From contig JAXDQU010000054.1 in NCBI GenBank assembly GCA_034667685.1, positions 20,742 to 84,741 of the forward strand: a DNA stretch of 64,000 nucleotides. The letters are read 5' to 3'. Both the position numbers and the translations under genes were made by a program. Below are positions 1 through 28,965 of this stretch, in pieces. The notes beneath the pieces were generated by a model, which searched no databases, was not told the DNA's origin, and worked only from the letters and a program-made list of their open reading frames with translations. The first letter of the stretch is position 1. The number at the start of each line of letters is the position of its first letter. Origin of the DNA: Thermoplasmata archaeon (lineage in GTDB: Archaea; Thermoplasmatota; SW-10-69-26; JACQPN01; JAJPHT01).

Positions 1-3000
1 GGCCGCGCAGGATCGGCATCTGGCTCCACGGACGCGCGTCGCCCGCGGCGCGAAGCGCGGCCTTGGCCGCCAACGTCGCGGCGAGCCAATCCTCCTTGCG
101 CTTCGTGACGGGCAGCGCGGAGAGCGCGGCCTGCTCGTCGGGTGATAGCACGCCCGACCAGAGGCCGGGCCGCTCCAGGAGCGCGCGCGCCGTCTCGACG
201 CCCACGCGCGTGACGTTGGTGCCGCCCACGTGCACGACGTCGTGCAGCCAGGGCGCGATGCCCGGAAGCGCGGCGGGGCCCGTGACGATGAGCGCGACGC
301 CCTGCATCGCGATGGCGACCTCGCCGTCCACGATGCATTGCACGTCGCCCTTGACGCGGTTGTCCTCCAGGCGCGCGTGCGCGACGCGGTACGTGGCGCG
401 GCCCGGCTCGAAGGGGCCGAAGAGGTCGACGCGCCCCACGCGCTCGGGAAGCGCCATGACGCCGCCCACGGCGAGGCCCCAGAGGCCCAGCGCCTGGAAC
501 GCGCCCTCCATGAGCGCGGCCGCGGGCGGGATCCCCTCGGCGGGGGCGCGGCCCGCGCACTCGATGCCATCCGACGCGGCGCGCGTCGGGCGTGATAGCA
601 CCTGGAACGCGGGGCCATGGAAGAACGGCGGGTAGACCCGCTCCGCGCTCCAGGGGTGCCCGGCGGCGCTCCACGGCGCGGGGCGCGGCGCGGCCGTGCC
701 GAGCAGGCGCGCGGTGAAGTGCGTGCGCGGCTGGCGAAGAGGACCCGGAGGGACGGAGGTGACGGAGGCCCTGCCGCCGCTCTCGACGTGCACCGTGATA
801 TCAACGGGCTGGTCGCGCAGCAGCTTCACCGGGTACGCGAAGTGCACGTCCTCCATCGCGGGGACCGGCGTGGGCGACGCGCTCGTCATCGCGCTCATGC
901 CCAGGACACCCGCGAGGTAGGGCACGCCCTCGACGCGGTGGTCGTCGAGCGCCGGGTCGGTGGCGCGCAGGGTCTGCGTCGATCCGGCGGGCTGCCCGAC
1001 GGGCTCCTCGTGCGGCTGCGCCTCGAGCTGGCCGAGGCCCTTCGCGAGCACGACCTCGGGCTCGTCGAGGCGCGCCAGCTCCGAGAGGAACGCGGAGACG
1101 CCCTCCGCCGTGGTGATGGGCTCGACGCCCGCGGCCTTGAGCACGGTGAGCGTGCTCCCCTTCGTCGCCATGCCGACCTCGCCCCACGGGCCCCAGGCGA
1201 ACACGGAGGCGCCGACGCCCTTGGCGCGCAGCGCGCGGGCCAATTTTGATATCGCGTCGTTGGCGGCGGAGTAGTCGGCTTGCGCCGCGTTGCCGTAGCG
1301 CCCCGCGACGCTGCCGAACATGACGAAGAACGCCGGCGGCTCCTTCTCCAGGAGACGCGCGAGGGCGAACGCGGCCTCGGCCTTGGGCTTCCACGCGCGG
1401 TCGAAGGCGCCTTCGTCCTTGTCGGCGAGGCGCTTGCTCTCCTCCAGGCCCGCGGCGTGGATGACGCCGTGGATGCGCCCGAAGCGCGCGCGGACGTCGT
1501 GGACCGCGCGCTCCAGCGCCGCGACGTCGGAGGCGTCGGCCTGCACGTACTCGGCGGTGGCGCCCAGCGCGCGAAGCTCGGCGAGGTTGCGCGCGATCTC
1601 CGCCTTGGCGCGCAGCGGCGCGACGCGCTTCTCGATGGCGACGGGCGTGACGCGCTCGCCGGCGGCCTTGAGGTCGGCCATCGCCTGCTCCTTGGCGCGC
1701 GTCTCGTCGAACGCTTCGCCGGTGGGCGGCGCGGTGCGGCCCAGGAGGACGAGCGTCGGCTTCTGCGGCGCGAGCGCCTTGAGCGCTTCCGCGGTGATGC
1801 CGCGCGCTCCGCCCGTCACGAGCAGCACGGCGCCCGCGGGCAGCTTGGGGTGCTGGCCGTCCGTCGTGCCCGCCTCGATGGTGCGCACGACGACGCGGCC
1901 GCGCGCGGAGCGGCCCACCTCGACCAGCGAGCGCTCGACGCGCAGCTCCGCCTCGACGTGGTGGACGCGGCGCGCGACGTCCTCGGCGGGATCGAGGTCC
2001 AGCGCGCGCACCCACGCCTTGGGGAACTCGGCCGCGAGCGCCTTCGCCATGCCGGTCAGGCCGCCCTGCTCGGGGTGCGCCGCGTGGTCGATGCCGCTGT
2101 GGCCGCCCATCTCGGTGACGACGAGCAGGCCGAGCCTTCCGTTGTCGAGGTCGTTGGCGCGGCTGCGCGCGAAGAGGAACAGCTCGCGCGCGGGGCCGCT
2201 GAAGATCGCGATATCACCTTGGGCGTGCGGCCACTTGTGGCGCAGCGCCTCGGCGAGCGCGCCGTGCCCGGCCACGAAGGCGGATCGCGTGGCGCTCCCC
2301 TCGGCGTGCGCGGGCGAGACGCGCGGCACGCGACGGACGAGCGCGGTGGCCGGCGCGTTCACGCGCGCCGTGTCGAGCGGCGCGGCGCTGGCGGCCGTCT
2401 GCGCGGCGGTGGCGCGGCCCGCGTGCGTGCTGATGAAGCCCGCGACGTGGCTCATCGTCGGGTAGTCCTTGAGGTTGACGCCCTCGATGCGCGGGATGCC
2501 GAACGCCTCGCGCAGCTCGCCGAAGATCTCGGCCTGCTTCACGGTGTCAATGCCCAGGTCCGCTTCCATGTCGAGGTTCGGATCGAGCATCTCCGGCGGG
2601 TAGCCGGTCTTCTGCGCGACGAGCGCCACGACCTTCGATAGCACGTCGTGCGCGGCGCCGGGGCCCTTCTGTGGCGCGGGGGCAGGCTGCGGCGCGGCGG
2701 GGTTGGGCGCGAACTGCGCGGGCGGCGCGGTGAACGGCACGGGCGGCGTGGGCGCCATCGCCTCCGCCACGGTCGGCGTGCCCGACATGCGCGAGACGAG
2801 GTAGTCGGCCACCTTCGCCAGCGTCGGGATGTCCTTGAGCGTCAGCTTGTCGTCGCGCGGCAGCCCGTAGCTCTCGCGCAGGATGCCGAAGATCTCCGCC
2901 TGCTTGACGGTGTCAATGCCCAGGTCCGCCTCCATGTCGAGGTTGGGATCGAGCATCTCGGGCGGATAGCCCGTCTTCTCGGCGACGAGGCCCATGACCT

Positions 3001-6000
3001 TCTGGACGACGGCCTCGCGCGGGACGCCGGCGACCGGGGAGGCCGGCGCGGGCTTCGGCGCCTCGGTCTGGACCGGCACGCTCACGGGCGGCGCGGGCGC
3101 CACGGTCGCGTTGCCGGTGACGCGGAGCACGCGCCCCTGCATCGCCGTCTTGGCGCCGCTGCCGCCGACGCACTGGTCGAGGAACGATTGATAGCGCGTG
3201 GCGTCCGCGACGCGGGCATCGCCCTGCGCCATGCGCTCGAAGAACGCCATCGCGAGCTGCGAGCCGAAGCCCGCGCTGAAGCGCATGGCGAACCGGCGCT
3301 GGTGCGCGCCGCCGCGGCTGAGGTTCAGGTCGGCGAACTCCGGGTCGACGTCGCGCAGGTTGGCGATCGGCGGCACCTTGCCGTATTGCAGCGACTTGAC
3401 CGCGAGGGCGTCCTCGATGCCTGCGCCCATCGGGTGGCCGGTGAAGCCCTTCGTGTTGGTCACGAGGACCTTGGTCGCGCCGCTGCCGAACGCCGCGCGC
3501 ATGGCGGCCGCCTCGGCCGACGCGGAGCCGCCGCGGGCGGGCGTGTACGTCTCGTGCGAGACGAAGATGGTGTCCTGGCCGAGCGCGTCGACGGCGAGGT
3601 TCAGCCGCCTCGCGGCGGCGTCGACCAGCGCCTTGGCCTCCTTGGCGATGTGCTCGACGTGGAGGCGCGAGCCGTGGTACGCGCTGTTCGCGATGCGGGT
3701 CGCGACGAGCCGGGCGACGGGCGTCATGCCGCGCGCCTCCACGTCCTCGCGGCGCTCCAGCACGAGGCCGACGGCGCCCATGCCGATGATCATGCCGTGG
3801 CGGCGGCGGTCGAACGGAAGCGCGCCTTCCTCGACGCTGCCGGCGGTGGTGGCCGCGCCGGAGACGAGGAAGCCGCTGCCGATCCACTCCAGGAGGTTCT
3901 CGGAGGTCACGTCGTCCGCGCCGACCACCACGACGCGTCGCGCTCGGCCGGTGCGCATCCAGTCCTCCGCGATGGCGATGGCCTGCGTGCTGCTGCTGCA
4001 CGCCGCGTTGACCTGCGTGTTGGGCCCGCGCGCGACGATCGTCTCGGCAAGCTCGGCGTGCCCGAGGCTGAGGATGCTGAAGAGGAAGTGGCGGTTGAAC
4101 GCCGCGACACCGTCCTCGTCGCCCGCGAGCTCGTGCAGCTCGTGCGCGTGCTTGGCGTAGAACGCGCTGATGCGGCTCTTCTTCTCGACGGGCACGGCGT
4201 CCAGAAGCTCGTGGTAGAGCGCGTCGAGCTCCGTGAGCGTGGCCTTCGCGTAACGCCTCGCCAGGTGGCGGCTCACTTCCTGCACGAAGTTGTCGTAGCC
4301 GGGGAACGCGCTGGCGAAGATGATGCCGGTGTCGTCCTGCATGTGCGGAGGCAGCACCCAGTCGCCGGGGAGGATCTTCCCGGTGGTCGTGCGCTTCATC
4401 TCCTGCACCATCGGGATGCCCGCGTCCCGCAGCGCCTCGTAGGCCGCCGCGATGGCGAGCTTGCTGGTGATATCAAGCGTCTTGAGGAGCTTGGGATCGA
4501 CGGCGTAGTCGCGCTCCATGTCGAGCCCGCCCTTGCGCCCGGCGAGCTTGAGGACCTCGCTGGCGTCCTTCACGGGCTCCATGCGCGGCTCGCCCTCGCC
4601 CTTCACGAGCCGGACGATCTCCTTGTCGAGGAACTTGCCCGCCCATTGCGTGTCGAGCCGGTCGATGCGGTTCTCGCCGCGGAAGAGCGCCTCGAAGTTG
4701 TCGTCGCCGAAGATGCGCTTCGCGGAGCCGGGCAGCCCCGCGGCCGCGCCGCTGACCACGACGTCGACGGGGAGCAGGCCATAGCGCGAGAAGGCGCCCT
4801 CGGCCTCCTTCAGGCGCGCAAGCTCGCGCTGGAAGCCATCAAAGCTGCTCTTGAGCGCCGCGTCGAGCATGGGCTGGACGCTGGTGCGGAACGCCTCGTA
4901 GCTGCCGTCCGTCGGGCCGACGACCTGCGTCGGGCGCGGCGCCGCGGCCTGCGGCATGGCCTCGGTGGCGTCGCCGCTGGGCAAGGATAGCTCGAACCCG
5001 ACGGCGCCCAGCTTGGCGACCGAGTCCAGGAACGAGGCGAGGTCGCCGCGCTTGGGGTGGTTCGTCGTGACCGCGAGCACGGCCTGGCCCAGGGTGGCCT
5101 CGACGAAGCCCGAGAGCGCGCGCTTCGGGCCGACCTCGACGAAGATCGTCGCGCCCGCGGCCTGCATCGCCTTCAGCTCCGCGATCCACTCGACGGGCGC
5201 GGCGATCTGCTTGGAAAGGATATCACGAATCGCGTCGGGGCTCGCGGGGTAGAGCGTCGCGTCGATGTTCGTGTAGCACGGGATGCGTGGCGCCTGGAAG
5301 CCGAGCCGATCCAGCACGCGGCGCAGCGGCTGCGCGGCGGGCGCCACGATGCTCGTGTGGAACGCGGCGCTCACGTTGAGCTGCATCACGTCGATGCCCA
5401 TGCTTTTGGCGACCTGCATCGCCTTCTGCACGGCCGGCGTCTCGCCCGCGATCACGGTCTGCACGGGACAGTTCTTGTTGGCCGCGACGACGTAGCCGGG
5501 CACCTGGCGGAGCACCTGCTCGACCTGCTCGGGGCCCGCGGAGACGGAGGCCATCAGGCCCTTGTCGGGCACCTGGACGCCGGCCATCTCCTTGCCGCGC
5601 GCCGAGACGGCGAGCAGCGCGTCTTCGAACGATAGCACGCCCGCGGCCACGAGGGCTGCGTACTCGCCCAGCGAGTGGCCGCCTACCATGTCCGGCTTGA
5701 TGCCGTGCTCGGCCAGCAGGCGGAAGATGGCGACGTCGGCCGCGAGCATCGCGGGCTGCGTCACCTCGGTCTGCTTGAGCGACTCCTCGGCGCGCGCCAC
5801 CGCGGCCGCGTCCTTCGGGTCGACCCAGAGCAGCGTGGTGAGCTTGCTTCCGAGCAGCGGCTCCAGCACGCGGTCCGCCTCGTCGAACGTCGCGCGCACC
5901 ACCGGGTAACGCATGGCAAGCTCGCGGCACATGTTGGCGTACTGCGAGCCCTGGCCCGGGAAGAGGAACGCGACCTTGCCCGTGGGACGGCCCTCGGCGA

Positions 6001-8776
6001 ACGCGGCGCCCTTGACCTTGAGCGGGAGCGCCTGGCGTCCCTTCGGGTCGAGGATCAGCGGCGCGGCGGCTTCGAGCGCGGCGGCGAGCCCGGCGCGGTC
6101 CTGCGCGCCCAGCCCCAGGCGCACGCTGCGGGTGTGCGCGCGGGGCGTCCGCACGTGGCGCGCGGCCTGCTCCAGCGTCGCGGCGGCCTTGACCTGTGCG
6201 ACCGCGGCCTTCGCCTCCGCGGCCAGGCCTTCCACGCTGTCGGCCGCGAGCACCACGACCTCGCCCTCGATCTGCGGGGCGAGGGCGGCGGGCGCGCGGG
6301 CCTGCAAGGGCGCGGCCGCGGGCTTCGGCTTCGCCGCGTGGTACTCGGGCAGGAATTCCTCGAGGATGACGTGGAAGTTCGTGCCGCCGAAGCCGAACGC
6401 GGAGACGGCGGCGCGGCGCGGCTCGCCCGTGGGCGTCTTGGGCCACGGCTCGGCGCTCGTCTGCACCTTGAAGGGGACCTTGCTCCAGTCGATGTTCGGG
6501 TTGGGCGTCTGGAAGTTGATCGACGGCGGGAGCGTCTTGTGGTGGAGCGCGAGCGCGGCCTTGAGCATGCCCGCGGCACCCGCGGCGCTCTTGAGGTGGC
6601 CGATCTGCGACTTGACGGAGCCGAGCGCGACGCTCTGGGACGGGAGCGGGCCGAAGACCTCGGCGATGCTCTCGACTTCGACCACGTCGCCGACCTTGGT
6701 GCTCGTGCCGTGCGCCTCGACGAGCTGCACGTGCTTGGGCTGGACCTCGGCGACCTGGAAGGCGCGCTTGACGGCGAGCTTCTGGCCGTCGGGGTTGGGC
6801 GCGGTGATGCCCTTGCCCTTGCCGTCGCTGCTGCTGCCCATCCCGCGGATGACGCAATAGATGCGGTCGCCGTCGCGCACCGCGTGAGATAGCTTTTTCA
6901 GGAGCAGGATCGCGACGCCCTCGCCCATGACGAAGCCGTTGGCGCGCGCGTCGAAGGGGGTGCTGCCGGTGGGCGAAAGCGCGCCGATCTTGCAGAACTT
7001 GACGTAGGTCGCGGGGTCCATGCTGCGGTCCGCGCCGCCGCAGAGCACCATGTCGGCCTCGCCGCCGAGGATCGCCTTGACGGCGGTGTCGAGCGCGGCG
7101 TGGCTGCTGGCGCACGCGGCGTCGGTGGTGAGGTTCTTGCCGGTGAGATTCAGCACGTTGGCGAGCCGGCCGGCGATGACGTTTGATAGCTCGCCGGGCA
7201 TCGAGTCCTCGGTGATGGTGGGCAGCGTCGCCTTGAACTGCGCGAGCGCGCGGTCCACGTCGGCGGCCGGCATCGACTTGCGCAGCGCTGCGGCGAACTC
7301 CGCGGCGTGCATGCGCTTCGAGGTCTCGTCCTTCATCTCGCCGCCCAGCGAGTTGCCCAGGATGACGGCGCAGCGCTGGCGATCGAACGGCTTGCGGTCA
7401 TACCCCGCGTCCGCGAGCGCCTCGGCAGCCGCCGTCAGCGCCATCTGCTGCACGGGGTCGAGCGCCTTCGCCGTGTTGGGCGGGATGCGGAACTTCAGCG
7501 CGTCGAAGCGGAAGCCGGTGATGAAGCCCCCGATCTTCGCGTAGGTCTTGTCCTCCTTCGTCGGGTCCGGGTCGTAGTGCACGCTCGCGTCCCAGCGGTC
7601 GGCCGGGACCTCGACGATGCAGTCCACCTTGTTCAGGACGTTCTGCCAGAACTCGCCCGCGTTGTTCGCGCGCGGCAGCACGGCGCCCACGCCGATGATC
7701 GCCACGGCCTCCTCGTGCGGCACCGTCTCGAAGCGCGGCGCGGTGACGGGCTCCGCGTTCAGCCGGGTGTGCCCGATGGGCGCGGCGGGGGGCTCGGCCA
7801 TCCGAGGATCGGGCATCGCCTCGCGCGGGGGAGGCGAAGGGATGCTGGGGGAGGCGGAGGGAGGTGGGGGGAGGCTGGGGGTGGGCGCCGCGCCCATGCG
7901 CCCCGCGAGATAATCCGCCACTTTCTCGAGCGTCGGGATGTCCTTGAGCGTGAGCTTGTCGTCGCGCGGCAATTGATAGCTTTCGCGCAGGATGCCGAAG
8001 ATCTCCGCCTGCTTCACCGTGTCGATGCCGAGGTCCGCCTCCATGTCGAGGCCGGGGTCGAGCAGGTCCTTCGGGTAGCCGGTCTTCTGCGCCACGAGGT
8101 CGATGACCTTCGCCAGGACCGCAGCCCGCGTAGCGGGCGAGGACCCCGACGAAGCCGCAGCTTCGTTGAGGACTTCCTCGCGCTTCGCTCCGGACGCGGC
8201 GGGCGCGGGCGGAGCGGCGGGCGCAGCAGCGGGCGCCGGGACCGGCGCGGGCGGGGGCGGCGGAGGGAGGCTCGGGGAGGCGGAGGGAGGCGGGGGGAGG
8301 CTGGGCGCGCCGAGGTCGCTGCGCACCTGCGCGATCGCGCCCGCGAGCGAGCCGGCGCGCTTGGCGAGGAACGGCGCGAGCAGCGCGTCGCGGCCCACCT
8401 TCAGGCCGCTGGGCAGCGTGGCGGAGCCGCCCGCGAAGTCGTTCGCGCCGAGCCGCGCCATCGCGGCCTTGTCGTCGGCGGAGAGCGGCGACTCGGGGAG
8501 GAGCCAGAGCTGCGCGTCGAGGATGACGCCCGCGGCGCCGGCCTCCGCGACGGCCTTGAGCGTCGCGCGGTCGAGTCCGCCCTGGGCCAGCGGTTGCTGC
8601 CCCAGGGACACCAGCCGCTTGACCTCGGCGAGCGTCTGCGCGGACGTCTGTCCGCGCGCGACGGGGTGGCCGTCCACGACGGCGTCGTCCGCGAACATGA
8701 GCGGCAGGCCACCGGCGGCTGCCACCTTGACGGCGAAGTCCGGGTTCCCGTTCGGCGTGACGACGTAGAGCTTCAT
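1..8776 (-). CDS. Iterative type I polyketide/fatty-acid synthase (PfaA-like), 3'-partial; domains: degenerate NMO/FabK-like segment, ACP, KS, AT, KS, ACP, ACP, KR, DH, PPTase
   Basis: Manual translation from ATG 8776 (MKLYVVTPNG) stays open to the window edge. KS1: DAACASS (Cys codon 7112-7114), HGTST, GHLKSAAG. AT: FPGQGSQ, GHSLG (Ser 5672-5674), SAAFH. KS2: NAACSSS (Cys 3998-4000), SHETYT, GHPMGAG. Three ACPs with DLGIDTVKQAE. KR: TGGARGIT, YSAAN. DH: DDHRVEGVPYL. Sfp-like LSPDE...DWLAATLAAKAA at the edge. Confidence 0.93.
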   Translation of the reverse strand, partial: MKLYVVTPNGNPDFAVKVAAAGGLPLMFADDAVVDGHPVARGQTSAQTLAEVKRLVSLGQQPLAQGGLDRATLKAVAEAGAAGVILDAQLWLLPESPLSADDKAAMARLGANDFAGGSATLPSGLKVGRDALLAPFLAKRAGSLAGAIAQVRSDLGAPSLPPPPSASPSLPPPPPPAPVPAPAAAPAAPPAPAASGAKREEVLNEAAASSGSSPATRAAVLAKVIDLVAQKTGYPKDLLDPGLDMEADLGIDTVKQAEIFGILRESYQLPRDDKLTLKDIPTLEKVADYLAGRMGAAPTPSLPPPPSASPSIPSPPPREAMPDPRMAEPPAAPIGHTRLNAEPVTAPRFETVPHEEAVAIIGVGAVLPRANNAGEFWQNVLNKVDCIVEVPADRWDASVHYDPDPTKEDKTYAKIGGFITGFRFDALKFRIPPNTAKALDPVQQMALTAAAEALADAGYDRKPFDRQRCAVILGNSLGGEMKDETSKRMHAAEFAAALRKSMPAADVDRALAQFKATLPTITEDSMPGELSNVIAGRLANVLNLTGKNLTTDAACASSHAALDTAVKAILGGEADMVLCGGADRSMDPATYVKFCKIGALSPTGSTPFDARANGFVMGEGVAILLLKKLSHAVRDGDRIYCVIRGMGSSSDGKGKGITAPNPDGQKLAVKRAFQVAEVQPKHVQLVEAHGTSTKVGDVVEVESIAEVFGPLPSQSVALGSVKSQIGHLKSAAGAAGMLKAALALHHKTLPPSINFQTPNPNIDWSKVPFKVQTSAEPWPKTPTGEPRRAAVSAFGFGGTNFHVILEEFLPEYHAAKPKPAAAPLQARAPAALAPQIEGEVVVLAADSVEGLAAEAKAAVAQVKAAATLEQAARHVRTPRAHTRSVRLGLGAQDRAGLAAALEAAAPLILDPKGRQALPLKVKGAAFAEGRPTGKVAFLFPGQGSQYANMCRELAMRYPVVRATFDEADRVLEPLLGSKLTTLLWVDPKDAAAVARAEESLKQTEVTQPAMLAADVAIFRLLAEHGIKPDMVGGHSLGEYAALVAAGVLSFEDALLAVSARGKEMAGVQVPDKGLMASVSAGPEQVEQVLRQVPGYVVAANKNCPVQTVIAGETPAVQKAMQVAKSMGIDVMQLNVSAAFHTSIVAPAAQPLRRVLDRLGFQAPRIPCYTNIDATLYPASPDAIRDILSKQIAAPVEWIAELKAMQAAGATIFVEVGPKRALSGFVEATLGQAVLAVTTNHPKRGDLASFLDSVAKLGAVGFELSLPSGDATEAMPQAAAPRPTQVVGPTDGSYEAFRTSVQPMLDAALKSSFDGFQRELARLKEAEGAFSRYGLLPVDVVVSGAAAGLPGSAKRIFGDDNFEALFRGENRIDRLDTQWAGKFLDKEIVRLVKGEGEPRMEPVKDASEVLKLAGRKGGLDMERDYAVDPKLLKTLDITSKLAIAAAYEALRDAGIPMVQEMKRTTTGKILPGDWVLPPHMQDDTGIIFASAFPGYDNFVQEVSRHLARRYAKATLTELDALYHELLDAVPVEKKSRISAFYAKHAHELHELAGDEDGVAAFNRHFLFSILSLGHAELAETIVARGPNTQVNAACSSSTQAIAIAEDWMRTGRARRVVVVGADDVTSENLLEWIGSGFLVSGAATTAGSVEEGALPFDRRRHGMIIGMGAVGLVLERREDVEARGMTPVARLVATRIANSAYHGSRLHVEHIAKEAKALVDAAARRLNLAVDALGQDTIFVSHETYTPARGGSASAEAAAMRAAFGSGATKVLVTNTKGFTGHPMGAGIEDALAVKSLQYGKVPPIANLRDVDPEFADLNLSRGGAHQRRFAMRFSAGFGSQLAMAFFERMAQGDARVADATRYQSFLDQCVGGSGAKTAMQGRVLRVTGNATVAPAPPVSVPVQTEAPKPAPASPVAGVPREAVVQKVMGLVAEKTGYPPEMLDPNLDMEADLGIDTVKQAEIFGILRESYGLPRDDKLTLKDIPTLAKVADYLVSRMSGTPTVAEAMAPTPPVPFTAPPAQFAPNPAAPQPAPAPQKGPGAAHDVLSKVVALVAQKTGYPPEMLDPNLDMEADLGIDTVKQAEIFGELREAFGIPRIEGVNLKDYPTMSHVAGFISTHAGRATAAQTAASAAPLDTARVNAPATALVRRVPRVSPAHAEGSATRSAFVAGHGALAEALRHKWPHAQGDIAIFSGPARELFLFARSRANDLDNGRLGLLVVTEMGGHSGIDHAAHPEQGGLTGMAKALAAEFPKAWVRALDLDPAEDVARRVHHVEAELRVERSLVEVGRSARGRVVVRTIEAGTTDGQHPKLPAGAVLLVTGGARGITAEALKALAPQKPTLVLLGRTAPPTGEAFDETRAKEQAMADLKAAGERVTPVAIEKRVAPLRAKAEIARNLAELRALGATAEYVQADASDVAALERAVHDVRARFGRIHGVIHAAGLEESKRLADKDEGAFDRAWKPKAEAAFALARLLEKEPPAFFVMFGSVAGRYGNAAQADYSAANDAISKLARALRAKGVGASVFAWGPWGEVGMATKGSTLTVLKAAGVEPITTAEGVSAFLSELARLDEPEVVLAKGLGQLEAQPHEEPVGQPAGSTQTLRATDPALDDHRVEGVPYLAGVLGMSAMTSASPTPVPAMEDVHFAYPVKLLRDQPVDITVHVESGGRASVTSVPPGPLRQPRTHFTARLLGTAAPRPAPWSAAGHPWSAERVYPPFFHGPAFQVLSRPTRAASDGIECAGRAPAEGIPPAAALMEGAFQALGLWGLAVGGVMALPERVGRVDLFGPFEPGRATYRVAHARLEDNRVKGDVQCIVDGEVAIAMQGVALIVTGPAALPGIAPWLHDVVHVGGTNVTRVGVETARALLERPGLWSGVLSPDEQAALSALPVTKRKEDWLAATLAAKAALRAAGDARPWSQMPILRG

Positions 8777-8780
8777 GATA

Positions 8781-9602
8781 TCACTGGGGCCCTTCGTAGG
8801 GGTTGAGACGAGGCTCGATGAGCAGGCGGTCCATCTCGGGCGGCGCGCCGACGCTGACGTAGCCCGCGTCGACGTAGATCGTCTGTCCCGTGATGCCGCC
8901 GCTGTCGGGCGTGAGGAGGAACCGCGCGGCCTTCGCGACGTCGACCTGCGTGACGTTGCGGCGCAGCGGCGTGTTGTTCGCCATCCAGTCGAGGATCTGG
9001 TCGAAGCCGGGCACGCCGGAGGCGGCGAGCGTCTTGATCGGGCCCGCGCTGATGGCGTTGACGCGGATGCCGTAGCCGGGGCCGACGCTCGCGGCCAGCT
9101 CGCGCACGAGCGACTCGATGGCAGCCTTCGCGGTGCCCTGCACGCGGTAGCCCGGGACGACGCGCTGGCCGCCCAGGTACGTGAGGGCGACGATGCCCGC
9201 GTCGCGGTTGAGCAGCGGCAGGCCGTTGCGCACGACGCGGACGAGGCTGTACGCGCTGATGGTGAGCGTGGTGTTGAAGTCGGCCTCGGTGGTCTCCGTG
9301 ATCGGCTTCATGAGCGCCTCGGCGGGCGTGAAGGCGATGGCGTGGACGAGGCCGTCGTACTTGCCGTGGAGCTTGGCGTGGAACGCCTTGACCGAGTCCT
9401 CGGAGGAGACGTCGCACTCCTCCATCTGGTCGATCCACTTCTGGTCCTTCGCAAGCTGGAGGACGCGGCTCATGAACCGCTTCTGGTAGGCGAGCGTGAC
9501 GGTCGCGCCGCGGCCCGCAAGCTCCTGTGCGATGGCCCAGGCGATGCTGGTGTCGCTGGCGACGCCGTACACGAGGAAACGCTTGCCTTGGAGGTCGTTC
9601 AT
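8781..9602 (-). CDS. fabI: Enoyl-ACP reductase (FabI-type SDR)
   Basis: GVASDTSIAWAIA N-terminus, HAIAF, catalytic YxxxxxxK (YRVQGTAK), IRVNAISAGPIKTLAA, ITGQTIYVDAG. Confidence 0.9.
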   Translation of the reverse strand: MNDLQGKRFLVYGVASDTSIAWAIAQELAGRGATVTLAYQKRFMSRVLQLAKDQKWIDQMEECDVSSEDSVKAFHAKLHGKYDGLVHAIAFTPAEALMKPITETTEADFNTTLTISAYSLVRVVRNGLPLLNRDAGIVALTYLGGQRVVPGYRVQGTAKAAIESLVRELAASVGPGYGIRVNAISAGPIKTLAASGVPGFDQILDWMANNTPLRRNVTQVDVAKAARFLLTPDSGGITGQTIYVDAGYVSVGAPPEMDRLLIEPRLNPYEGPQ

Positions 9603-9755: not shown

Positions 9756-11348
9756 TCAGAGGGGGATGTTTCCATGTTTGCGGGGCGGCCGCTCCACGTG
9801 CTTGGACGCGAGGCGGGCCAGGTGCGCCGACACGTGGGCGCGCGTCGTCGCGGGGTCGATGATGTCGTCCACGAAGCCCAGCTCGGCGGCGAACATCGGG
9901 TTGCCGAAGCGGTCGCGGTAGCCGGCCTCCAGCTCCTTGCGGAAGTCCTCGTCCGCATTCTTCAGCTCGCGGCGGTGCAGGATCTGGACCGCGCCCTGCG
10001 CGCCCAGCACGGCGATCTCCGCCTGCGGCCACGCGAGGTTGACGTCGCTGCGCAGGTGCTTGCTGCACATGACGATGTACGCGCCGCCGTAGGCCTTGCG
10101 CGTGACGACGGTGATCTTGGGGACCGTGGCCTCGCAGTAGGCGTAGAGGAGCTTCGCGCCGTGGCGGATGATGCCGCCGTGCTCCTGCTCGCGGCCCGGG
10201 AGGAAGCCCGGCACGTCCACGAGGCTGAGGAGCGGGACGTTGAACGCGTCGCAGAAGCGCACGAAGCGCGCGGCCTTCTCGGAGGCCTGCACGTCGAGGA
10301 CGCCGGCGAGGACCTTGGGCTGGTTGGCGACGATGCCCACGACGCGCCCTTCGACGCGGCCGAAGCCGACGACGACGTTGCGCGCCATCGCGGCGTGGAT
10401 CTCGAAGAACGAGTCGCGGTCCAGGATGCCGGCCATCACGTCGCGCATGTCGTAGGGCTGCGACGAGTCGGGCGGGACGACGGTGCGGAGCGCCTCGGGG
10501 TCCTGCGCGGGGATCGGCTCGTAGCGCGGCGGGTGCTCGAGGTGGTTCTGCGGCAGGTAGGAGAGGAGCGCGCGGATCTTGTCGAGCGTCTCCTCGTCCG
10601 TCTCGCCCGTGAGGTGGCAGACGCCCGAGTCGTTGGCGTGCACGTCCGCGCCGCCCAGGTCCACGTGGGTCGTCTCCTCGCCCAGGACCGTCTTCACGAC
10701 GTCCGGGCCGGTGAGGTACATGTAGCTCGTCTTGCGCGTCATCAGGACGAAGTCCGTGAGCGCGGGGCCGTAGACCGCGCCGCCGGCGCAGGGCCCGAGG
10801 ATGCCGGCGACCTGCGGGATGACGCCCGATGCGTCCACGTGCCGCTGGAAGATGTCGCCGTAGCCGCCCAGCGCCGCCACGCCTTCCTGGATGCGGGCGC
10901 CGCCACTGTCATTGAGCGCGACGAGGGGCACGCCGGTGGCGATGGCTTGCTCCATGATCTTGCAGATCTTGCGCGCCTGGGCGGACCCCAGCGAGCCGCC
11001 GGACACGGTGAAGTCCTGCGCGTAGATGCACACGGAGCGGCCGTGGATCTTGCCGTAGCCGGTGACGACGCCGTCGCCCGGGTGCGTGTCCTGCGGCAGG
11101 CCGCGGGAGAGCCCCTGGTGGACGGCGAAGGAGTCCGTCTCCATGAAGGAGCCCGGGTCCAGAAGATAGGCGATGCGCTCACGCGCCGTCATCTTCCCCT
11201 TGGCGTGCTGGGCCGCGATCTTCTCGGGGCCTCCGCCCTCCCGGCTGCGCTGGCGCGCGAGCTCGATGGGGTCCAGGGTCACGCGCCCGGCGTTGGGCGA
11301 GACGCGGACGATGGCGGGCTTCTGCGGCGCGGCCGTGGGGACGGTCAT
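9756..11348 (-). CDS. Acyl-CoA carboxylase carboxyltransferase (PccB/AccD-like beta subunit)
   Basis: QHAKGKMTARERI, GDGVVTGYG, DSGGARIQEG, GPCAGGAVY, DVPGFLPG, RKAYGGAY, RKHGNIPL; start placed at MTVPTAA. Confidence 0.93.
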   Translation of the reverse strand: MTVPTAAPQKPAIVRVSPNAGRVTLDPIELARQRSREGGGPEKIAAQHAKGKMTARERIAYLLDPGSFMETDSFAVHQGLSRGLPQDTHPGDGVVTGYGKIHGRSVCIYAQDFTVSGGSLGSAQARKICKIMEQAIATGVPLVALNDSGGARIQEGVAALGGYGDIFQRHVDASGVIPQVAGILGPCAGGAVYGPALTDFVLMTRKTSYMYLTGPDVVKTVLGEETTHVDLGGADVHANDSGVCHLTGETDEETLDKIRALLSYLPQNHLEHPPRYEPIPAQDPEALRTVVPPDSSQPYDMRDVMAGILDRDSFFEIHAAMARNVVVGFGRVEGRVVGIVANQPKVLAGVLDVQASEKAARFVRFCDAFNVPLLSLVDVPGFLPGREQEHGGIIRHGAKLLYAYCEATVPKITVVTRKAYGGAYIVMCSKHLRSDVNLAWPQAEIAVLGAQGAVQILHRRELKNADEDFRKELEAGYRDRFGNPMFAAELGFVDDIIDPATTRAHVSAHLARLASKHVERPPRKHGNIPL

Positions 11349-11509
11349 CGAGGCACCCCGCGCGGCGAGGCCGGGCTTCGGGTAAATGCCTTTTCGTCGT
11401 GACAAGGAGTGAAAACGAGTGAAGACCACAAGCGAAATCGGCGCACGCCGGAGAGGGGCACGGCGGCTTGGTGGGGGGCTGTGGGAGATACAGCCGCGCG
11501 GACGGGGCT

Positions 11510-11580
11510 CTGGGCTCAGGACTCCGGGCTCGGGGCTCTCCGGGTGCAGGGCAAGCGGAAGCCCCGAGTCCTGAGCCCAG
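11510..11580. repeat. Intergenic inverted repeat built from heptamer units
   Basis: ctgggctcaggactc (11510-11524) pairs perfectly with gagtcctgagcccag (11566-11580); tandem GGGGCTC-like heptamers at 11504-11538. Confidence 0.7.
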
Positions 11581-11640
11581 GCTGAGCGCAAGTTGATAGA
11601 AGAAAAGAAGGCCGCGCGCAGGCGGCCCCGGAGGGTGGCC

Positions 11641-12468
11641 TTACCAGGCCAGGTTCTCGGCGCGGATGCCCTGCGAGGTGAACGCCTCGGGGAGCACGCC
11701 CTCGTTGGCCCACTTGTAGAGGCCCGCGACGAGGATGCCGTCGACCGCGCTGTTGACTGCGGCCAGGACGACCCAGTAGGCGACCGCGACGGCGAAGAAG
11801 ACGATGGCGACCGCCACGAGGCCGGCGCTGAAGAGGCTCGCGCCGATCAGGATGGGGATCAGGCCCAAGAGGCCGAGGCCCATGAAGATGATCCCCGTGG
11901 TGGCGACGCCGGTGAGCGACTCGCCCCAGCTCTTCTTCATGATGCCCATGCTGCCCTTGATCGCGTCGAAGGGCCCGACGTCCTGGTAGACGAGGACGGG
12001 CACGACGAAGAACACCGCGACGTTCCAGCCGAACTCCAGGAAGGAGACGAGGATGCGCGCGATGATGTTGTCCTTCGCCTGGTCGCGCAGCATCTGGAGG
12101 ATGAGGCCGACCGTGGCCGCGATGACCGCCCACTGGAGGATGCGGCCGATGCGGCTCCAGGACTTGCGCAGGCCGTCCTTGAGCGTCGGGTCGCCGCCGT
12201 TGAAGCGGATCGTCGCCATCTCGACAGTGGCGGCGTTGAAGAAGATCACCGTCGCGTACATCGCGACGTAGAAGGCGAACAGGATGAGGTAGCCAACGAT
12301 GCCCATCTGGCCGACGTCCACGGCGAACACGAAGCCGAGGGCGACGCCGAGGATCAGCAGGTTGACGACGGCCGCGAGGAGCGGGAGGGCGATGATCTCC
12401 TTGTCAAGGCTGAGGACCTTGAAGGAGGCCTTCGTAAGGCTCCAGCCGCGGGCGATGCGTTCGAACAT
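11641..12468 (-). CDS. Multi-pass membrane protein (DUF6159-like)
   Basis: Several hydrophobic helices; FERIARGWSL and KKSWGE motifs; TATA-like TTATAT about 45 nt upstream. Confidence 0.75.
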   Translation of the reverse strand: MFERIARGWSLTKASFKVLSLDKEIIALPLLAAVVNLLILGVALGFVFAVDVGQMGIVGYLILFAFYVAMYATVIFFNAATVEMATIRFNGGDPTLKDGLRKSWSRIGRILQWAVIAATVGLILQMLRDQAKDNIIARILVSFLEFGWNVAVFFVVPVLVYQDVGPFDAIKGSMGIMKKSWGESLTGVATTGIIFMGLGLLGLIPILIGASLFSAGLVAVAIVFFAVAVAYWVVLAAVNSAVDGILVAGLYKWANEGVLPEAFTSQGIRAENLAW

Positions 12469-12897: not shown

Positions 12898-13812
12898 TCA
12901 GCCCACGCGCATGAAGCGCCCGTCCTGCCGCGCCATCGCGAAGTCCTTCTCCAGGAGACGCGCGAGGTGCTTCTCCACCATGACGCGCTCGTGGTAGCGC
13001 GCGAGCGGCGTCGTGGGCTTGCCCATGCAGATGCCCAGGTCCGCCAGCTCGTCGAGACTGCGCGGGTGCTCCAGCGCGGCCAGCACGCGCCGGTCGCGCT
13101 CGCGGATCGCCTCGGCCATCCCGCGGAAGAGCGGCTTGATGCCGCGCTTGCGGGGCTCGGCGTGGCTCGAGACGAGGATCGCCACCGGCACGTCGGCCAG
13201 CATGCTCGCGGTGCGCTCCAGGTCGGAGGGATCGCTGGCCGGGTAGCCGTACCAGGGCTGGTCGTCGGCGCCGACGTCGGCCGCGAAGAGGATGTGGCGC
13301 TCCGCGTCGAGGAGCGCGATCATGCCGGCGCTGTGGCCCGGCGCGTGGAGGAGCTGCCACTCGCTCTTGTCGAGCTTGATGAGGCCGCCGGGGCGAAGCT
13401 CGCGCGCGACGTGCGCGGCCTCGTAGCCCCCCTTGCGGATGGCGCTCGCCACCGTGTCACGGTCGCGGCGGCTCACCTCGTAGGTCTGCAGGTAGTCCTC
13501 GGGCCCGAGCATCGCGCGCGCCTCGGCCTTCGGCGCCCACACCTCGCGGAAGTCTCGCGCGCCGTGGCTGTGGGCGACGTGGCAGTGGGTGAGCACGCAG
13601 AGGTCGACGTGCGGCGCGAGCTTGCGGCGCAGCGCCGGGGGCAGGCCCGCGTCCACGAGCACGACCTCGTTCCCTTCGTCGAGGACGAGGGCGTTCGCGC
13701 CCGCGTGGTCAGGCGGGCAGGCGACCAGCCCGACGCCCGGCGCGACCCACGCAAGGGTCTTGGCGAGGTCGGGCGGAAGCGGCACGCGCCGCGCAGCCGC
13801 ACCCCCCGGCAA
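12898..13812 (-). CDS. MBL-fold metallo-hydrolase with C-terminal winged helix
   Basis: LVDAG, THCHVAHSHG (HxHxDH variant), HAPGHSAG, LFAAD, SSH; true start may be GTG 13785. Confidence 0.8.
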   Translation of the reverse strand: MPGGAAARRVPLPPDLAKTLAWVAPGVGLVACPPDHAGANALVLDEGNEVVLVDAGLPPALRRKLAPHVDLCVLTHCHVAHSHGARDFREVWAPKAEARAMLGPEDYLQTYEVSRRDRDTVASAIRKGGYEAAHVARELRPGGLIKLDKSEWQLLHAPGHSAGMIALLDAERHILFAADVGADDQPWYGYPASDPSDLERTASMLADVPVAILVSSHAEPRKRGIKPLFRGMAEAIRERDRRVLAALEHPRSLDELADLGICMGKPTTPLARYHERVMVEKHLARLLEKDFAMARQDGRFMRVG

Positions 13813-15713: not shown

Positions 15714-16405
15714 GGGCCCTTCCGGAACAGCAGCAGCGTCTTCCCGCAGCGCACCAGGCCGCCGTTGGCCAGCGGGCGCACGACGCCACGCTCCAGCCGC
15801 TTCCAGTCGAGGTACGTCCCGTTGCTGCTGTGGAGGTCCGCCAGCTCGAAGCCGCCTCCGGACGCGCGGCGCAGCTCGGCATGCCGGGTGCTGACGAACG
15901 GATCGTAGTCGAGGCACACCAGCGCGTGCGGGTCGCGCCCCACCAGCCACGGGCCGCCGCCTGATAGCACGGCGGTCTGGCCGATGCGCAGGCCGTGCAC
16001 GATGGTCAGGCGCGGAAGCTCCTGCTCCTGCGGCGTCGTGGACGGCGCGGCGTCCGCGGCCACGGTCGCCATGCGCATCTCGACGTCCTCCTCCAGCTCC
16101 GCCTGCAGATCGCCCAGCCGGCCCAGCATCTCGTGGACCGCGAAGAGGCGCTGCGGCGCGAGCACGTAGTCGCGCACCGCGCCGTGCTGGCCGCGTCCGG
16201 GCACGCTCTGCAGGAACCCCAGCTCCACGAGCTGCTGCACGTGCTCCTGCGCGGTCTGGCGCGCGACGCCCAGGTGGCCCGCGATCTCCTCCAGGTGGTG
16301 CGGCCGCGTCAGGAAGCGCAGCGTCTGCAGCCGGCGCGGGTGGCCGAGCGCCTTGAGGTACTCCGCGAGCGAGTCGATCGCGAGGTCCTCGCCGGCCGCG
16401 CTCAT
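15710..16405 (-). CDS. ArsR-type HTH plus FHA domain transcription regulator
   Basis: N-terminal LKALGHPRRLQTL...EEIAGHLGVARQTAQEHVQQL; C-terminal FHA motifs VGRD, VSTRHA, DLHSSNGT; ATGA overlap with the kinase stop. Confidence 0.85.
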   Translation of the reverse strand: MSAAGEDLAIDSLAEYLKALGHPRRLQTLRFLTRPHHLEEIAGHLGVARQTAQEHVQQLVELGFLQSVPGRGQHGAVRDYVLAPQRLFAVHEMLGRLGDLQAELEEDVEMRMATVAADAAPSTTPQEQELPRLTIVHGLRIGQTAVLSGGGPWLVGRDPHALVCLDYDPFVSTRHAELRRASGGGFELADLHSSNGTYLDWKRLERGVVRPLANGGLVRCGKTLLLFRKGP

Positions 16406-18375
16406 GCCGGCACCTCCGGGCCCGACGCGGCAGGCGCGAGCGGCTCGCGCAGGCGCACCAGGCCCGCCAGGGCGCGGCGCATCTCGCCGGCCGATTGATA
16501 GCGTTGGGACGGGTCCTTGGCGAGGCCGACGCGCAGGAAGGGCTCGACGTCCTCGAGGTCGGCGGGCATGGCGATCTCGGGATCGCCCTGCAGGATCATG
16601 GCGCGGATCTGGAAATCGTCGCGCCCGGCGATCCGCAGGTAGTGGCGGCGGGTGAGCATCTGGTGGAAGAGCGCCGCTGCGGCGTAGAGGTCGCTCCTCG
16701 CGTCGGCGTGCGCGCCGCGGACCTGCTCGGGGCTCATGGAGAGGAGCGTCCCCGCGCCGCCGCCCGTGAGGCCCGTCGCGTCGAGGCGCATCGCGCGCGC
16801 GATGCCGAAGTCCGCGAGCTTCGGCTCGCCCTGCTCGCCCAGGAGCACGTTCTCGGGCTTCACGTCGAGGTGCACGACGCCCGCGGCGTGGCACGCGGCG
16901 AGCCCGTCGAGGACGCCGGCCATGATGCGCGCGGCCTCCTCGCGGGGGAGCGGCGCGCGGCGGCGCAGGAGCCCTTGCAGGTTCCCGCCCGGCGCGTAGT
17001 CCATCACGAGCACGCCCTGGTCGCCCTCCTCGCCGGCGTCGAGCGCGCGGACGACGTTGGGGTGCGCGACCTTGCGCAGCATGGCGGCCTCCTCGGCCGC
17101 GAGGCTCGGCGCCATCGTCTTGAGCGCCACCTGCTCGCCGGTGCGCAGGTCGCGCGCGAGATGCGTGCGCCCGTGCGCGCCCTCGCCCAGGAGCCGGTCG
17201 ATCCGATAGCGGCCCAGGATCGTGCGCGGCGTCGTGGTGCCCCCGCGGGTCGCGGTCGCGGCGGAGGCGAGCAGCGCGGCGTGCTCCTCGGCGCTGATGC
17301 CGAAGCCGCGGCGCAGGCGCTGCAGCTCGGGCGCCTCGGCGCCCAGGCCGGAAGCGAGCGCCGCCTCCAGGCCGGCGCGGTAGACCTCGAGCTTGCGGGC
17401 GCGCGCGTAGCCTTCCTCGCCGGTGGGCGCGCGCACCACGAGCCGGCCCAGGTCGCGCCGCGCCGCGTAGGCCATCATCGCGACGCCGGCGCCCACCGCG
17501 GCGGGCCACCAGGCGCGCGCCGCGAGGCTGGCGATGATGCCGTAGCCCAACGCGAGGAGCGCGACGGTCGGCCCCACGAGCCGCTTGAGGCGCACCTCCA
17601 CGTCGAAGAGGTGGCGCCGCGCGATGGCATAGGCGAGGAGGAGCGCCGTCCCCAGCCGCGCCGCGCCCGAGAGGCCGAACTCGCTCGCGCTGTCGGTGAG
17701 CGCGGTGACGAGGCCGAGGAGCGTGGGCGCCACCAGCACCGCGAGGAGGAGCGGGTCGCGTCCCTCGGGCCGCGGCGGGCGCAGGAGCGCGTGCGCGAAG
17801 ATCCCGACGACGGCGCCCAGGGGCACGACGAACTCGACGACGCGGACCCCGCCCTGGCCCAGGTAGGTGAACGAGCCCAGCGCGCCGACGTACGCGGGGA
17901 AGAGCACGAGCGCCACGAGAAGGTCGCGGTAACGGCGCCGCTGCGAGCCGGGCTCCGCCCGCTGGTGCTGGCCGTAGACGACGAAGATCGCGGCGCCGAA
18001 CGCCGCGAAGTACGTGCTGCCGGCGATGCTGAACGTCTCGGGGAGGGAGCTTCCCGTCGCGGCGCTCGCGGCGAGGGTCAGCGCGAGGTAGCCGGCGTAC
18101 GCGGCGAGCCAGGGCCAGAGGCGCGCGTGCCGGCTCGACCGCACGGCGAAGGCGAGCACGAGCACGCCGGCCGCGATGAACAGGACCGCGCTGCCCAGCG
18201 AAGCCCGGATCGGATCGTCCGCGAGGTTCGCGACGAGGGCGCCGCCCGCCCACGCGACGAGGAAGGCGCCCAGGAGGCGCGTGTCGGGACGCCGGCCCGG
18301 CAGCGCGAGGAGGGCGACGCCCAGGAGGACCAGGGGCACGCTGCCTAAGAGCAGGAGCGCAAAGCCCGGTTCCAT
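16402..18375 (-). CDS. Membrane-integral Hanks-type Ser/Thr protein kinase
   Basis: Multi-TM N-terminal half; GEGAHG, VALK, HLDVKPEN, DFG, MSPE, SDLYA. Confidence 0.92.
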   Translation of the reverse strand: MEPGFALLLLGSVPLVLLGVALLALPGRRPDTRLLGAFLVAWAGGALVANLADDPIRASLGSAVLFIAAGVLVLAFAVRSSRHARLWPWLAAYAGYLALTLAASAATGSSLPETFSIAGSTYFAAFGAAIFVVYGQHQRAEPGSQRRRYRDLLVALVLFPAYVGALGSFTYLGQGGVRVVEFVVPLGAVVGIFAHALLRPPRPEGRDPLLLAVLVAPTLLGLVTALTDSASEFGLSGAARLGTALLLAYAIARRHLFDVEVRLKRLVGPTVALLALGYGIIASLAARAWWPAAVGAGVAMMAYAARRDLGRLVVRAPTGEEGYARARKLEVYRAGLEAALASGLGAEAPELQRLRRGFGISAEEHAALLASAATATRGGTTTPRTILGRYRIDRLLGEGAHGRTHLARDLRTGEQVALKTMAPSLAAEEAAMLRKVAHPNVVRALDAGEEGDQGVLVMDYAPGGNLQGLLRRRAPLPREEAARIMAGVLDGLAACHAAGVVHLDVKPENVLLGEQGEPKLADFGIARAMRLDATGLTGGGAGTLLSMSPEQVRGAHADARSDLYAAAALFHQMLTRRHYLRIAGRDDFQIRAMILQGDPEIAMPADLEDVEPFLRVGLAKDPSQRYQSAGEMRRALAGLVRLREPLAPAASGPEVPA

Positions 18376-18964: not shown

Positions 18965-19020
18965 GCTGTCAAACATCCTCCAACCTGTTCATGTGCAGGC
19001 GCGGCGTCGGCGCCTTGCCG

Positions 19021-27901: not shown

Positions 27902-28965
27902 GCGCGCATCCTGAGGCCGAACCGCGCCACGACGGCGTCCACCAGAGGCTGCGGCCCGTCGAGGAGCACGTCGGTCACGGGCTTCCCGAAGCGATCGGCG
28001 AGGCGCTTCTTCCATTCCTCGACGCCCGCGCGGTCCAGGCCTTCGTGGTTGAGCGTGATCGCCACGAGCGGGTGGCCGCTGAGCGTCTCGGCGATCGTGA
28101 TATCACGGGCGGGATCGCCCATCGGGTACTGCGGGAAGCCGTCGAGCGTCTGGCGCGCCGGCGCGTGCTGGAGGATGACGCCCTTGACGCGCGCGCCGCA
28201 GATGATCTCGTAGCCGCCCGGGTAGCCCGGGTGCGTGAGCCCGCCCTGCCCCTCGACCACGATGACGTCGGGGCTCTCGTTCTTCCACGCGCTCCAGACG
28301 ACGTGCTCGATCTCGCCGGTGAGGAAGTCGTTGACCAGCGAGTCGAGGATGATGGAGTACTTCGCGCCCTGGAGGCGGCCCGTCTGGCCCGTGCCGACGA
28401 AGACGGCCTTGATGCCCTGCTCGTTCAGGGCCTTCACGAGGACGCGCGCGGTGGTGCGCTTGCCGATGGCGCTGTCGGTGCCCAGCACCGCGACGACGGG
28501 GCACGTGACCTCCTCGATCTTCCCCGAGAAGAAGTGCTGCTCCTCCTTGGGGGGGACGGTGCGCACGTCGCGGATCGTGGCGCCGTGCTGCTTCGCGAGG
28601 GCGGCCAGCTCGGCGTCCTGCTCCAGCTTCTCGTGGAGCCCGCTCACGACGTGGAGGCCTTTGCGCAGCGCGGCGCGCACGATGGGGCGATAGCTTTCCG
28701 GGAGCCTTCCGCCGTCGGTCGCCACGCCCATCACGAAGTGCGTGGGTTGGGTGGCCGCGAGGGCCGCGTCGAGGCTCGCGAAGATCGGCACGCCGCAGGG
28801 CTTGCCGTCGAGGACCTGGCCCGCGTCGTGCCCCGCGAGGCCGCTGTCGAGGACGCCCACGATCTCGTAGAGGTCGCTGTAGCGCACCAGGCCGTGCGCG
28901 GTCTTGCCGCTGGGATCGGCGAAGTGGCCTTCGCACATGACGAGAGCCTTGAGGCGGCTGGGCAT
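27898..28965 (-). CDS. DUF1611 family protein (DgcN-like, P-loop fold)
   Basis: GKTAHGLVR, SGLH, GTDSAIGKRTT, TGQTG, VEGQG, LQHAP. Confidence 0.85.
   Translation of the reverse strand: MPSRLKALVMCEGHFADPSGKTAHGLVRYSDLYEIVGVLDSGLAGHDAGQVLDGKPCGVPIFASLDAALAATQPTHFVMGVATDGGRLPESYRPIVRAALRKGLHVVSGLHEKLEQDAELAALAKQHGATIRDVRTVPPKEEQHFFSGKIEEVTCPVVAVLGTDSAIGKRTTARVLVKALNEQGIKAVFVGTGQTGRLQGAKYSIILDSLVNDFLTGEIEHVVWSAWKNESPDVIVVEGQGGLTHPGYPGGYEIICGARVKGVILQHAPARQTLDGFPQYPMGDPARDITIAETLSGHPLVAITLNHEGLDRAGVEEWKKRLADRFGKPVTDVLLDGPQPLVDAVVARFGLRMRA

Follow-up and report, generated by a model that had tools for sequence, protein, structure and literature searches.

Textbook and database rules for the carrier domains of fatty acid synthases (FAS), polyketide synthases (PKS), and nonribosomal peptide synthetases (NRPS) assume a Ser acceptor, and domain callers flag carriers without this Ser as inactive. 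The acyl carrier protein (ACP) domains of PfaA, for instance, carry Ser in a motif of the LGIDSIKRVEI type, and tandem ACP arrays are also found in polyunsaturated fatty acid (PUFA) synthases. The enediyne synthase PKSE, an iterative type I PKS, has the order ketosynthase (KS), acyltransferase (AT), ACP, ketoreductase (KR), dehydratase (DH), and phosphopantetheinyl transferase (PPTase); its C-terminal Sfp-type PPTase self-loads a single Ser-ACP, and a second KS is absent. Here, we analyze a multidomain synthase gene whose ACPs carry Thr at the position of this Ser. The gene lies at one end of a stretch of 64,000 nucleotides (hereafter the window) from a soil Thermoplasmata archaeon (GenBank assembly GCA_034667685.1, contig JAXDQU010000054.1, positions 20,742 to 84,741), and it belongs to the 'Type R secondary lipid synthases', a family first listed in 2011.

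As outlined by Shulse and Allen (2011, PLoS One 6:e20146, PMC3098273), a Type R cluster has the order KS-MAT-CLF-ACP(3-6)-KR, where CLF stands for chain-length factor, and is followed by a PPTase gene. Sometimes an acetyl-CoA carboxylase (ACC) gene lies between the two, and in Koribacter an ACC component has this position. The hosts named there are Koribacter, Solibacter, Elusimicrobium, and Roseiflexus. The synthase described here likewise has a single pfaA homologue, the same KS-AT-'CLF'-ACP-KR order, an associated PPTase (in this case fused), and a carboxyltransferase gene nearby. In addition, Roseiflexus, Elusimicrobia, and 'Koro...' records were among its homologues, and the PPTase has the hShxH (SISH) motif of type P1b'. 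It differs from the clusters of that account in the fusion of the PPTase, in an extra N-terminal ACP before the first KS (KS1), and in its archaeal host; moreover, it has two ACPs after the second KS (KS2) versus 3-6 in the paper, and its homologues have 3-8. An earlier note on this DNA, made from the letters alone, had allowed for the possibility that a subfamily with GIDT-type carriers was already characterised. This turned out to be half the case, since the family was catalogued as Type R, but the product is given as uncharacterised and the word threonine has no occurrence in the text of that paper.

The gene is an open frame of 3072 codons (3072 aa) on the minus strand that runs from window position 8776 to beyond base 1 (contig positions 20299-29517). 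As judged by Pfam and NCBIfam, its product comprises, from the N to the C terminus, about 200 residues without a family, ACP1, KS1, AT, KS2, ACP2, ACP3, KR, a PKS-type DH, and the PPTase. The best NCBIfam match was PfaA (TIGR02813), with a score of 999.9 bits that falls just below the cut-off of 1010.1, which leaves the protein outside that family. With PfaA it shares the KS-MAT-tandem ACP-KR-DH order, the likeness to iterative type I FAS/PKS, and a dedicated PPTase (PfaE in PfaA systems); it differs in the additional KS between the AT and the ACPs, and the neighbours that were scanned included a FabI-like enoyl reductase and a carboxyltransferase instead of pfaB, pfaC, or pfaD. Enediyne PKSE was absent from the family matches viewed.

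Results

Threonine occupies the attachment position in all three ACPs

We observed the peptide DLGIDTVKQAE three times on the minus strand, once in each ACP, which bears out what the earlier note had claimed. The coding sequence reads GAC CTC GGC ATC GAC ACG GTG AAG in ACP1 (Thr codon 8020-8018), GAC CTG GGC ATT GAC ACC GTC AAG in ACP2 (Thr codon 2911-2909), and GAC CTG GGC ATT GAC ACC GTG AAG in ACP3 (Thr codon 2545-2543). The nucleotide pattern GGNATHGAYAC is present three times in the window versus 0.37 expected. Taken singly, each domain passed the gathering cut-off of 20.8 bits for Pfam PP-binding (PF00550; scores in Table 1). In phmmer alignments the Thr was placed opposite the Ser of the D-S-[LI] motif in solved carriers, namely PigH, mitochondrial and bacterial ACPs, and a peptidyl carrier protein (PCP) of A. 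baumannii. ACP2 was modelled with AlphaFold2 on the basis of 40 family ACPs, with a mean pLDDT of 85.9; in this model, helix II comprises residues 43-57 and begins with D42-T43, and the best Foldseek matches of the model were ACPs, at TM scores of 0.77-0.89 when normalised to the target. The feature of a regular carrier that failed was the conserved Ser of the D-S-[LIV] acceptor motif, with Thr found in all three domains. We conclude that Thr occupies the canonical attachment position in all three ACPs.

Threonine is a hallmark of the synthase family

We did not rely on a search seeded with the ACP, since a word index that favours GIDTV candidates makes it circular. In this biased, not independent set, all 584 of 584 motif matches had Thr (six of these from two copies of the query), the ACP was highly conserved with many positions near the site at 99-100% in 579 domains, and homologues had tandem arrays of up to eight ACPs. 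The search was replaced by one in which KS2 alone (601 aa) was compared with 1.84 billion cluster representatives, and in which the ACP motifs were read in the best 150. This returned 8453 proteins at E<=0.001, of which 554 at E<=1e-30, all counted as cluster representatives. Among the best 150, we observed 128 with Thr only, two with Ser only (P0155 and P0227), one with both (P0159), and 19 fragments without an ACP, and the motifs numbered 350 with Thr and 8 with Ser. In other words, a recognisable ACP was present in 131 representatives, and 128 of these have no Ser-ACP, while the Cys-His-His triad of KS2 is invariant in nine aligned sequences.

A scan of genomes, with one genome per species and KS2 as the basis of the alignment, gave 596 relatives, and motifs were counted in the 80 best loci. 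These loci belong to Thermoplasmatota, Heimdallarchaeota, Myxococcota, Chloroflexota, Acidobacteriota, and Actinomycetota, and their named hosts include the complete genome of Ca. Heimdallarchaeum aukensis, Roseiflexus, Ca. Chloroploca, and the cultured Paractinoplanes durhamensis. Again Thr prevailed, with 224 motifs versus 5 for Ser; 67 loci were Thr-only (one with an extra, spurious match on the opposite strand), four had both residues, and nine had no ACP in the stretch. Within the host's phylum the gene was found in 23 of 61 genomes, and in the host's family in 8 of 8. The codons at the family site were ACG (119), ACC (109), ACT (18), and ACA (7), with 6 Ser codons. Since Ser codons are only one base away and yet all four Thr codons are used, this codon distribution argues that Thr is maintained at the site by selection. 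The view that Thr is a peculiarity of one protein, tied to its fusion, is contradicted by these counts: Thr is a hallmark of a large synthase family, and not a quirk of a single gene.

The few Ser residues stand in the same register. Ser- and Thr-ACPs occur together within one open reading frame (ORF) at four loci (L043, L046, L062, and L063) and in the synthase of a Thermoplasmatota relative (G047); P0159 is the protein of L062, from Heimdallarchaeum. The three Ser-bearing representatives stood at three separate places among Thr-only tips when a tree was built from the KS2 domains of 145 representatives, with the paralogous KS1 as a crude root. By these sequences, Ser and Thr are exchangeable at the ACP site. 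Proteins that mix the two residues and scattered Ser tips are what is expected if the hydroxyl of the residue matters, and they thereby speak against Thr domains that are dead.

An Sfp-type PPTase is linked to most synthase loci

The PPTase domain at the end of the synthase lies in the same frame and matched PF01648 at 59.9 bits; over residues 21-153 it also matched PptT (E 3e-05) and Sfp in the PDB, and the profile of the family PPTases matched AcpS, AASDHPPT, Sfp, and EntD. The domain has what characterizes an Sfp-type (group II) PPTase: the PF01648 match, a two-lobed architecture of ~220 aa, and the motifs G-x-D-x-E and W-x-x-K-E-x-x-x-K. In 30 aligned family PPTases, R37, G72, G104, D106, E108, E126, W144, K147, E148, K152, and G157 were invariant, which we take to be the metal-binding and catalytic set known from the Sfp literature. 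In common with Sfp, PptT, and AASDHPPT, these PPTases keep the Mg-binding Asp and Glu as well as the Glu/Lys of W-x-x-K-E-x-x-x-K; what sets this PPTase clade apart from those group II enzymes is its linkage to Thr carriers. To our knowledge, all characterised group II PPTases load Ser.

The occurrence of related PPTases was surveyed with a profile made from the fused domain and its first matches, at the 54 loci in which the KR-DH end of the synthase is covered; an earlier screen with a single sequence had been too insensitive (29 of 54 loci) and was replaced. A related PPTase was fused or linked in at least 43 of these loci. The co-occurrence with fused PPTases that the earlier note had wished to see surveyed was thus confirmed as linkage, although mostly in the form of a separate gene (28 loci versus 15 fusions). 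Of the separate PPTases, 15 were the next gene within 1.5 kb on the same strand, and 13 were 5.5-6 kb away, five of these on the opposite strand. In Acidobacteriota and Actinomycetota loci (L083, L087, L093, L104-L106, and others) the PPTase was found at a constant 5.5-6 kb past the synthase. Presumably this gap holds one large gene, which would fit the ACC-interrupted arrangement of Type R clusters. Separately, the C-terminal PPTase of Ca. Heimdallarchaeum aukensis (L062:15191-15826) is repeated near-identically as an ORF of 208 aa ~2.5 kb downstream (L062:17923-18522). Two PPTase specificities in this organism were considered and rejected, because the two matches are near-identical copies; the second one stems from either a local duplication or a repeat in the assembly.

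Carriers and PPTases were also searched for across archaeal genomes. The host genome (G000) is 3.48 Mb in size with 71% GC, and its small-subunit rRNA matched the archaeal model from end to end at 1498 bits, a model that also matches bacteria; an L10P insertion domain and HVO-type and TrmB regulators are encoded near the synthase. All PP-binding matches found in this genome, and the single PF01648 match found there, belong to the synthase ORF. Both families were searched in six archaeal genomes, and G037 was searched for PP-binding alone. PF01648 matches were found only in or next to the synthase in G000, G003, G007, G016, G054 (where it is the next gene), and G063, and PP-binding matches were found only in the synthase ORF in the same six genomes and in G037.

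Two bacterial genomes served as controls. In a Roseiflexus metagenome-assembled genome (MAG), D-S-L was present in two carriers outside the synthase, one of them AcpP-like, and Thr in the three ACPs of the synthase. In Paractinoplanes durhamensis Ser was present in all 22 inspected of 42 PP-binding matches. PF01648 matches numbered two in the Roseiflexus MAG and five in P. durhamensis, and each of these bacteria has a separate PPTase adjoining the synthase in addition to others. According to a published account (PMC3340395), the E. coli mutant ACP(S36T) cannot be modified by 4'-phosphopantetheine (4'-PP), is non-functional, and fails to replace acpP. Because this mutant is not modifiable and because the two bacteria retain an additional PPTase next to the synthase, a specialised, Thr-accepting PPTase appears plausible, i.e., one that is dedicated and possibly orthogonal. 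A search of the full-text literature, with most subscription journals outside its scope, gave no report of Thr-linked phosphopantetheine or of the motifs GIDT, LGIDT, or DTVKQ, and no later work on the Type R family was found there.

Gene organization, neighbouring genes, and predicted product

The coordinates of the synthase domains and of the neighbouring genes are collected in Table 1.

Table 1. Synthase domains and neighbouring genes, in window coordinates
Feature	Position	Strand	Evidence and remarks
Multidomain synthase gene	1..8776	-	Last 147 codons and stop lie beyond window base 1; Pfam KS, AT, PP-binding, KR, DH
ACP1, with Thr253 (ACG)	7874..8146	-	PP-binding, 21.0 bits
KS1, residues 356-833	6278..7711	-	PF00109, PF02801, PF16197
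Acyltransferase, residues 937-1232, GHSLG motif	5081..5968	-	PF00698, E 1.2e-43
KS2, residues 1290-1890, 'CLF' in the naming of Shulse and Allen	3107..4909	-	Second KS match
ACP2, with Thr1956 (ACC)	2765..3037	-	PP-binding, 30.0 bits; AlphaFold2 model
ACP3, with Thr2078 (ACC)	2399..2671	-	PP-binding, 33.8 bits; alignments to solved ACPs
Ketoreductase, residues 2317-2532	1181..1828	-	PF08659, E 1.4e-36
PKS-type dehydratase, about residues 2600-2850	227..979	-	PF21089, weak, E 0.0029; region conserved among homologues
N-terminal part of fused Sfp-type PPTase domain, residues about 2857-2925	1..208	-	Same open frame
FabI-like enoyl reductase, 4 bases upstream of synthase start	8781..9602	-	PF13561, E 5.8e-72; NCBIfam FabI models about 236 bits, below cut-offs
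Acyl-CoA carboxylase carboxyltransferase	9756..11591	-	PF01039, E 2e-191; TIGR01117 713.8 bits, below cut-off
DUF6159 protein	11641..12468	-	PF19656, E 3.3e-45
Metallo-beta-lactamase-fold hydrolase	12898..13812	-	PF00753, E 1.8e-14

The catalytic core of the fused PPTase (the PF01648 match, contig positions 20392-20646) falls upstream of base 1 and is not part of the window, as was checked on the contig. In the translation, the active-site Cys of KS1 and the GHSLG motif of the AT are retained. The KS2 residues C304, H452, and H492 were invariant in the nine aligned sequences, and the domain has an unusual S-H-E-T-Y-T-P motif. Since the active-site Cys and both His are kept, the 'CLF' domain appears to be a second functional ketosynthase and not a chain-length factor. 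The N-terminal 199 residues before ACP1 (window 8180-8776, minus strand) matched no Pfam or NCBIfam family, and this region is followed by a proline-rich linker, PPPPSASPSLPPPPPPAP. As for the DNA itself, ACP-coding sequence is repeated within the gene with 83% identity (contig 28636-28850 versus 2786-3000), and the short-read contigs of all three runs end at the ACP repeats (window 2876-2905 and 7985-8012).

Together, the KS, AT, ACP, KR, and DH domains of the synthase, the FabI-like enoyl reductase, and the carboxyltransferase make up a complete set for reductive elongation from malonyl-CoA, with the carboxyltransferase as the probable supplier of the latter. The predicted product is a long-chain, fatty-acyl-type 'secondary lipid'. 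The DUF6159 gene is possibly part of the operon, and the metallo-beta-lactamase-fold hydrolase is tied to the cluster by its position only. A few kb from the cluster, the window also encodes a eukaryote-type Ser/Thr protein kinase of 657 aa (16402-18375, minus strand) and a protein of 926 aa whose C-terminal end consists of two HVO_0163-type winged-helix domains (18991-21771, plus strand).

Discussion

Altogether, the comparative data make it probable that Thr is the phosphopantetheine acceptor in these synthases, and that a co-inherited PPTase acts on it. The argument that weighs most in favour of a loaded Thr is that a conserved PPTase, with its catalytic residues kept, would have no conceivable substrate besides the Thr-ACPs. 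The idea of the earlier note that the fused PPTase loads Thr is therefore favoured as far as the pairing goes, with the only carriers and the only PPTase found in the genome residing in one protein and with this pair recurring in other archaea; what we infer is the chemistry, i.e., the modification of Thr itself, together with the inability of generic PPTases to load Thr (orthogonality) and the nature of the product. In the proposed scheme, the gene encodes a PfaA-like synthase of the 'Type R secondary lipid' kind that would work iteratively and whose ACPs would use Thr instead of Ser for the attachment of 4'-phosphopantetheine. The linked Sfp-type PPTase, here present as the C-terminal fusion, would move the arm from CoA to the hydroxyl of the Thr with which helix II begins. 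The resulting holo-ACPs would serve KS1, AT, KS2, KR, and DH as well as the adjacent FabI-like enoyl reductase, and malonyl-CoA from the adjacent carboxyltransferase would be converted into a long fatty-acyl-type chain.

Several points weigh against Thr as the acceptor. We know of no precedent for Thr-linked phosphopantetheine, and the case for it is one of comparative genomics alone. No linked PPTase was found in 11 of the 54 loci within the 0.8-6.6 kb available downstream, and the alignment of family PPTases shows only the ordinary Sfp-type set, with no residue that would visibly explain the acceptance of a secondary alcohol. Furthermore, the fast family search that was applied to whole genomes missed ACP1 of this very protein, which means that 'only' is to be read as 'only one found'. 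Finally, the E. coli S36T result indicates that a canonical PPTase rejects Thr (PMC3340395).

We consider it unlikely that Thr is an acceptor but a neutral substitute for Ser, such that any Sfp-type or AcpS enzyme would load it and neither orthogonality nor a specialised PPTase would exist. This would agree with single proteins in which Ser- and Thr-ACPs are combined with one linked PPTase, and with family PPTases that keep only generic Sfp-type catalytic residues. Under neutrality, however, Ser should be common, being one base away, whereas the Thr to Ser ratios were 350:8 and 224:5 in many phyla and with four Thr codons in use. Moreover, bacteria that possess AcpS-like and other PPTases still retain one beside the synthase, and the AcpS of E. 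coli fails to load ACP S36T (PMC3340395).

Distinctly improbable, in our view, is that the Thr-ACPs are never phosphopantetheinylated and act as structural or docking pseudo-carriers, with a synthase that works on CoA thioesters or is inactive. Such an explanation takes the rejection of Thr by canonical PPTases (PMC3340395) at face value, and fatty-acid synthesis in archaea has been described as independent of ACP (bioRxiv 10.1101/2024.07.05.601840). It would, however, leave the conserved linked PPTase without a substrate in the six archaeal genomes that were searched for both families. Nor does it sit well with ACPs that are conserved more strongly than any other part of the protein and form tandem arrays of up to eight, or with the occasional Ser at the same position, which argues for a working hydroxyl.

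There is very little to recommend the possibility that Thr at the canonical site is incidental, with some other residue of the ACP or linker carrying the arm or another prosthetic group. Two further Thr residues are almost invariant, in KTGYP at -21 (98%) and in YPTL at +29 (99%), and could be thought of in this context. However, DYPT-type motifs are a common structural element of PKS ACPs, and the N-terminus of helix II is the site presented to CoA in PPTase-carrier complexes; in addition, the 85 residues of the ACP profile include no conserved Ser, and the Ser replacements occur at the canonical site. As for a sequencing or assembly error or a decaying pseudogene, we consider this excluded: two different Thr codons (ACG and ACC) are used, an argument of the earlier note that holds, all three codons are identical in contigs of an independent soil run (X2) from another sample and study, a same-genus orthologue with 84% identity has the same three motifs, the 3072-codon frame is intact with a third-position GC of 0.94, and Thr is a family-wide trait.

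To a more far-reaching proposition built on Thr as the acceptor we would give about an even chance. It states that O-(4'-phosphopantetheinyl)-threonine is a natural and widespread modification that defines this synthase family, and that the PPTase clade is insulated from the AcpS/Sfp enzymes of the host, and perhaps from its ACP phosphodiesterase. The fused cassette would then have given Thermoplasmatota and Heimdallarchaeota, which are otherwise without visible carriers, an ACP-dependent fatty-acyl synthase. If a large and phylogenetically broad family does use Thr, a fundamental modification would exist in a new variant, hundreds of 'inactive-looking' synthases would in fact be active, and a naturally orthogonal carrier/PPTase pair would be available for labelling and pathway engineering. 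The DTVKQ motif together with the KS2 domain offers a simple handle on an uncharacterised lipid pathway, and this pathway is common in soil Acidobacteriota, Chloroflexota, Actinomycetota, and Myxococcota. Its presence in this archaeon and in Ca. Heimdallarchaeum aukensis bears on fatty-acyl lipid synthesis in archaea and, for Thermoplasmatota and Heimdallarchaeota, on whether some archaea make ACP-dependent fatty-acyl lipids.

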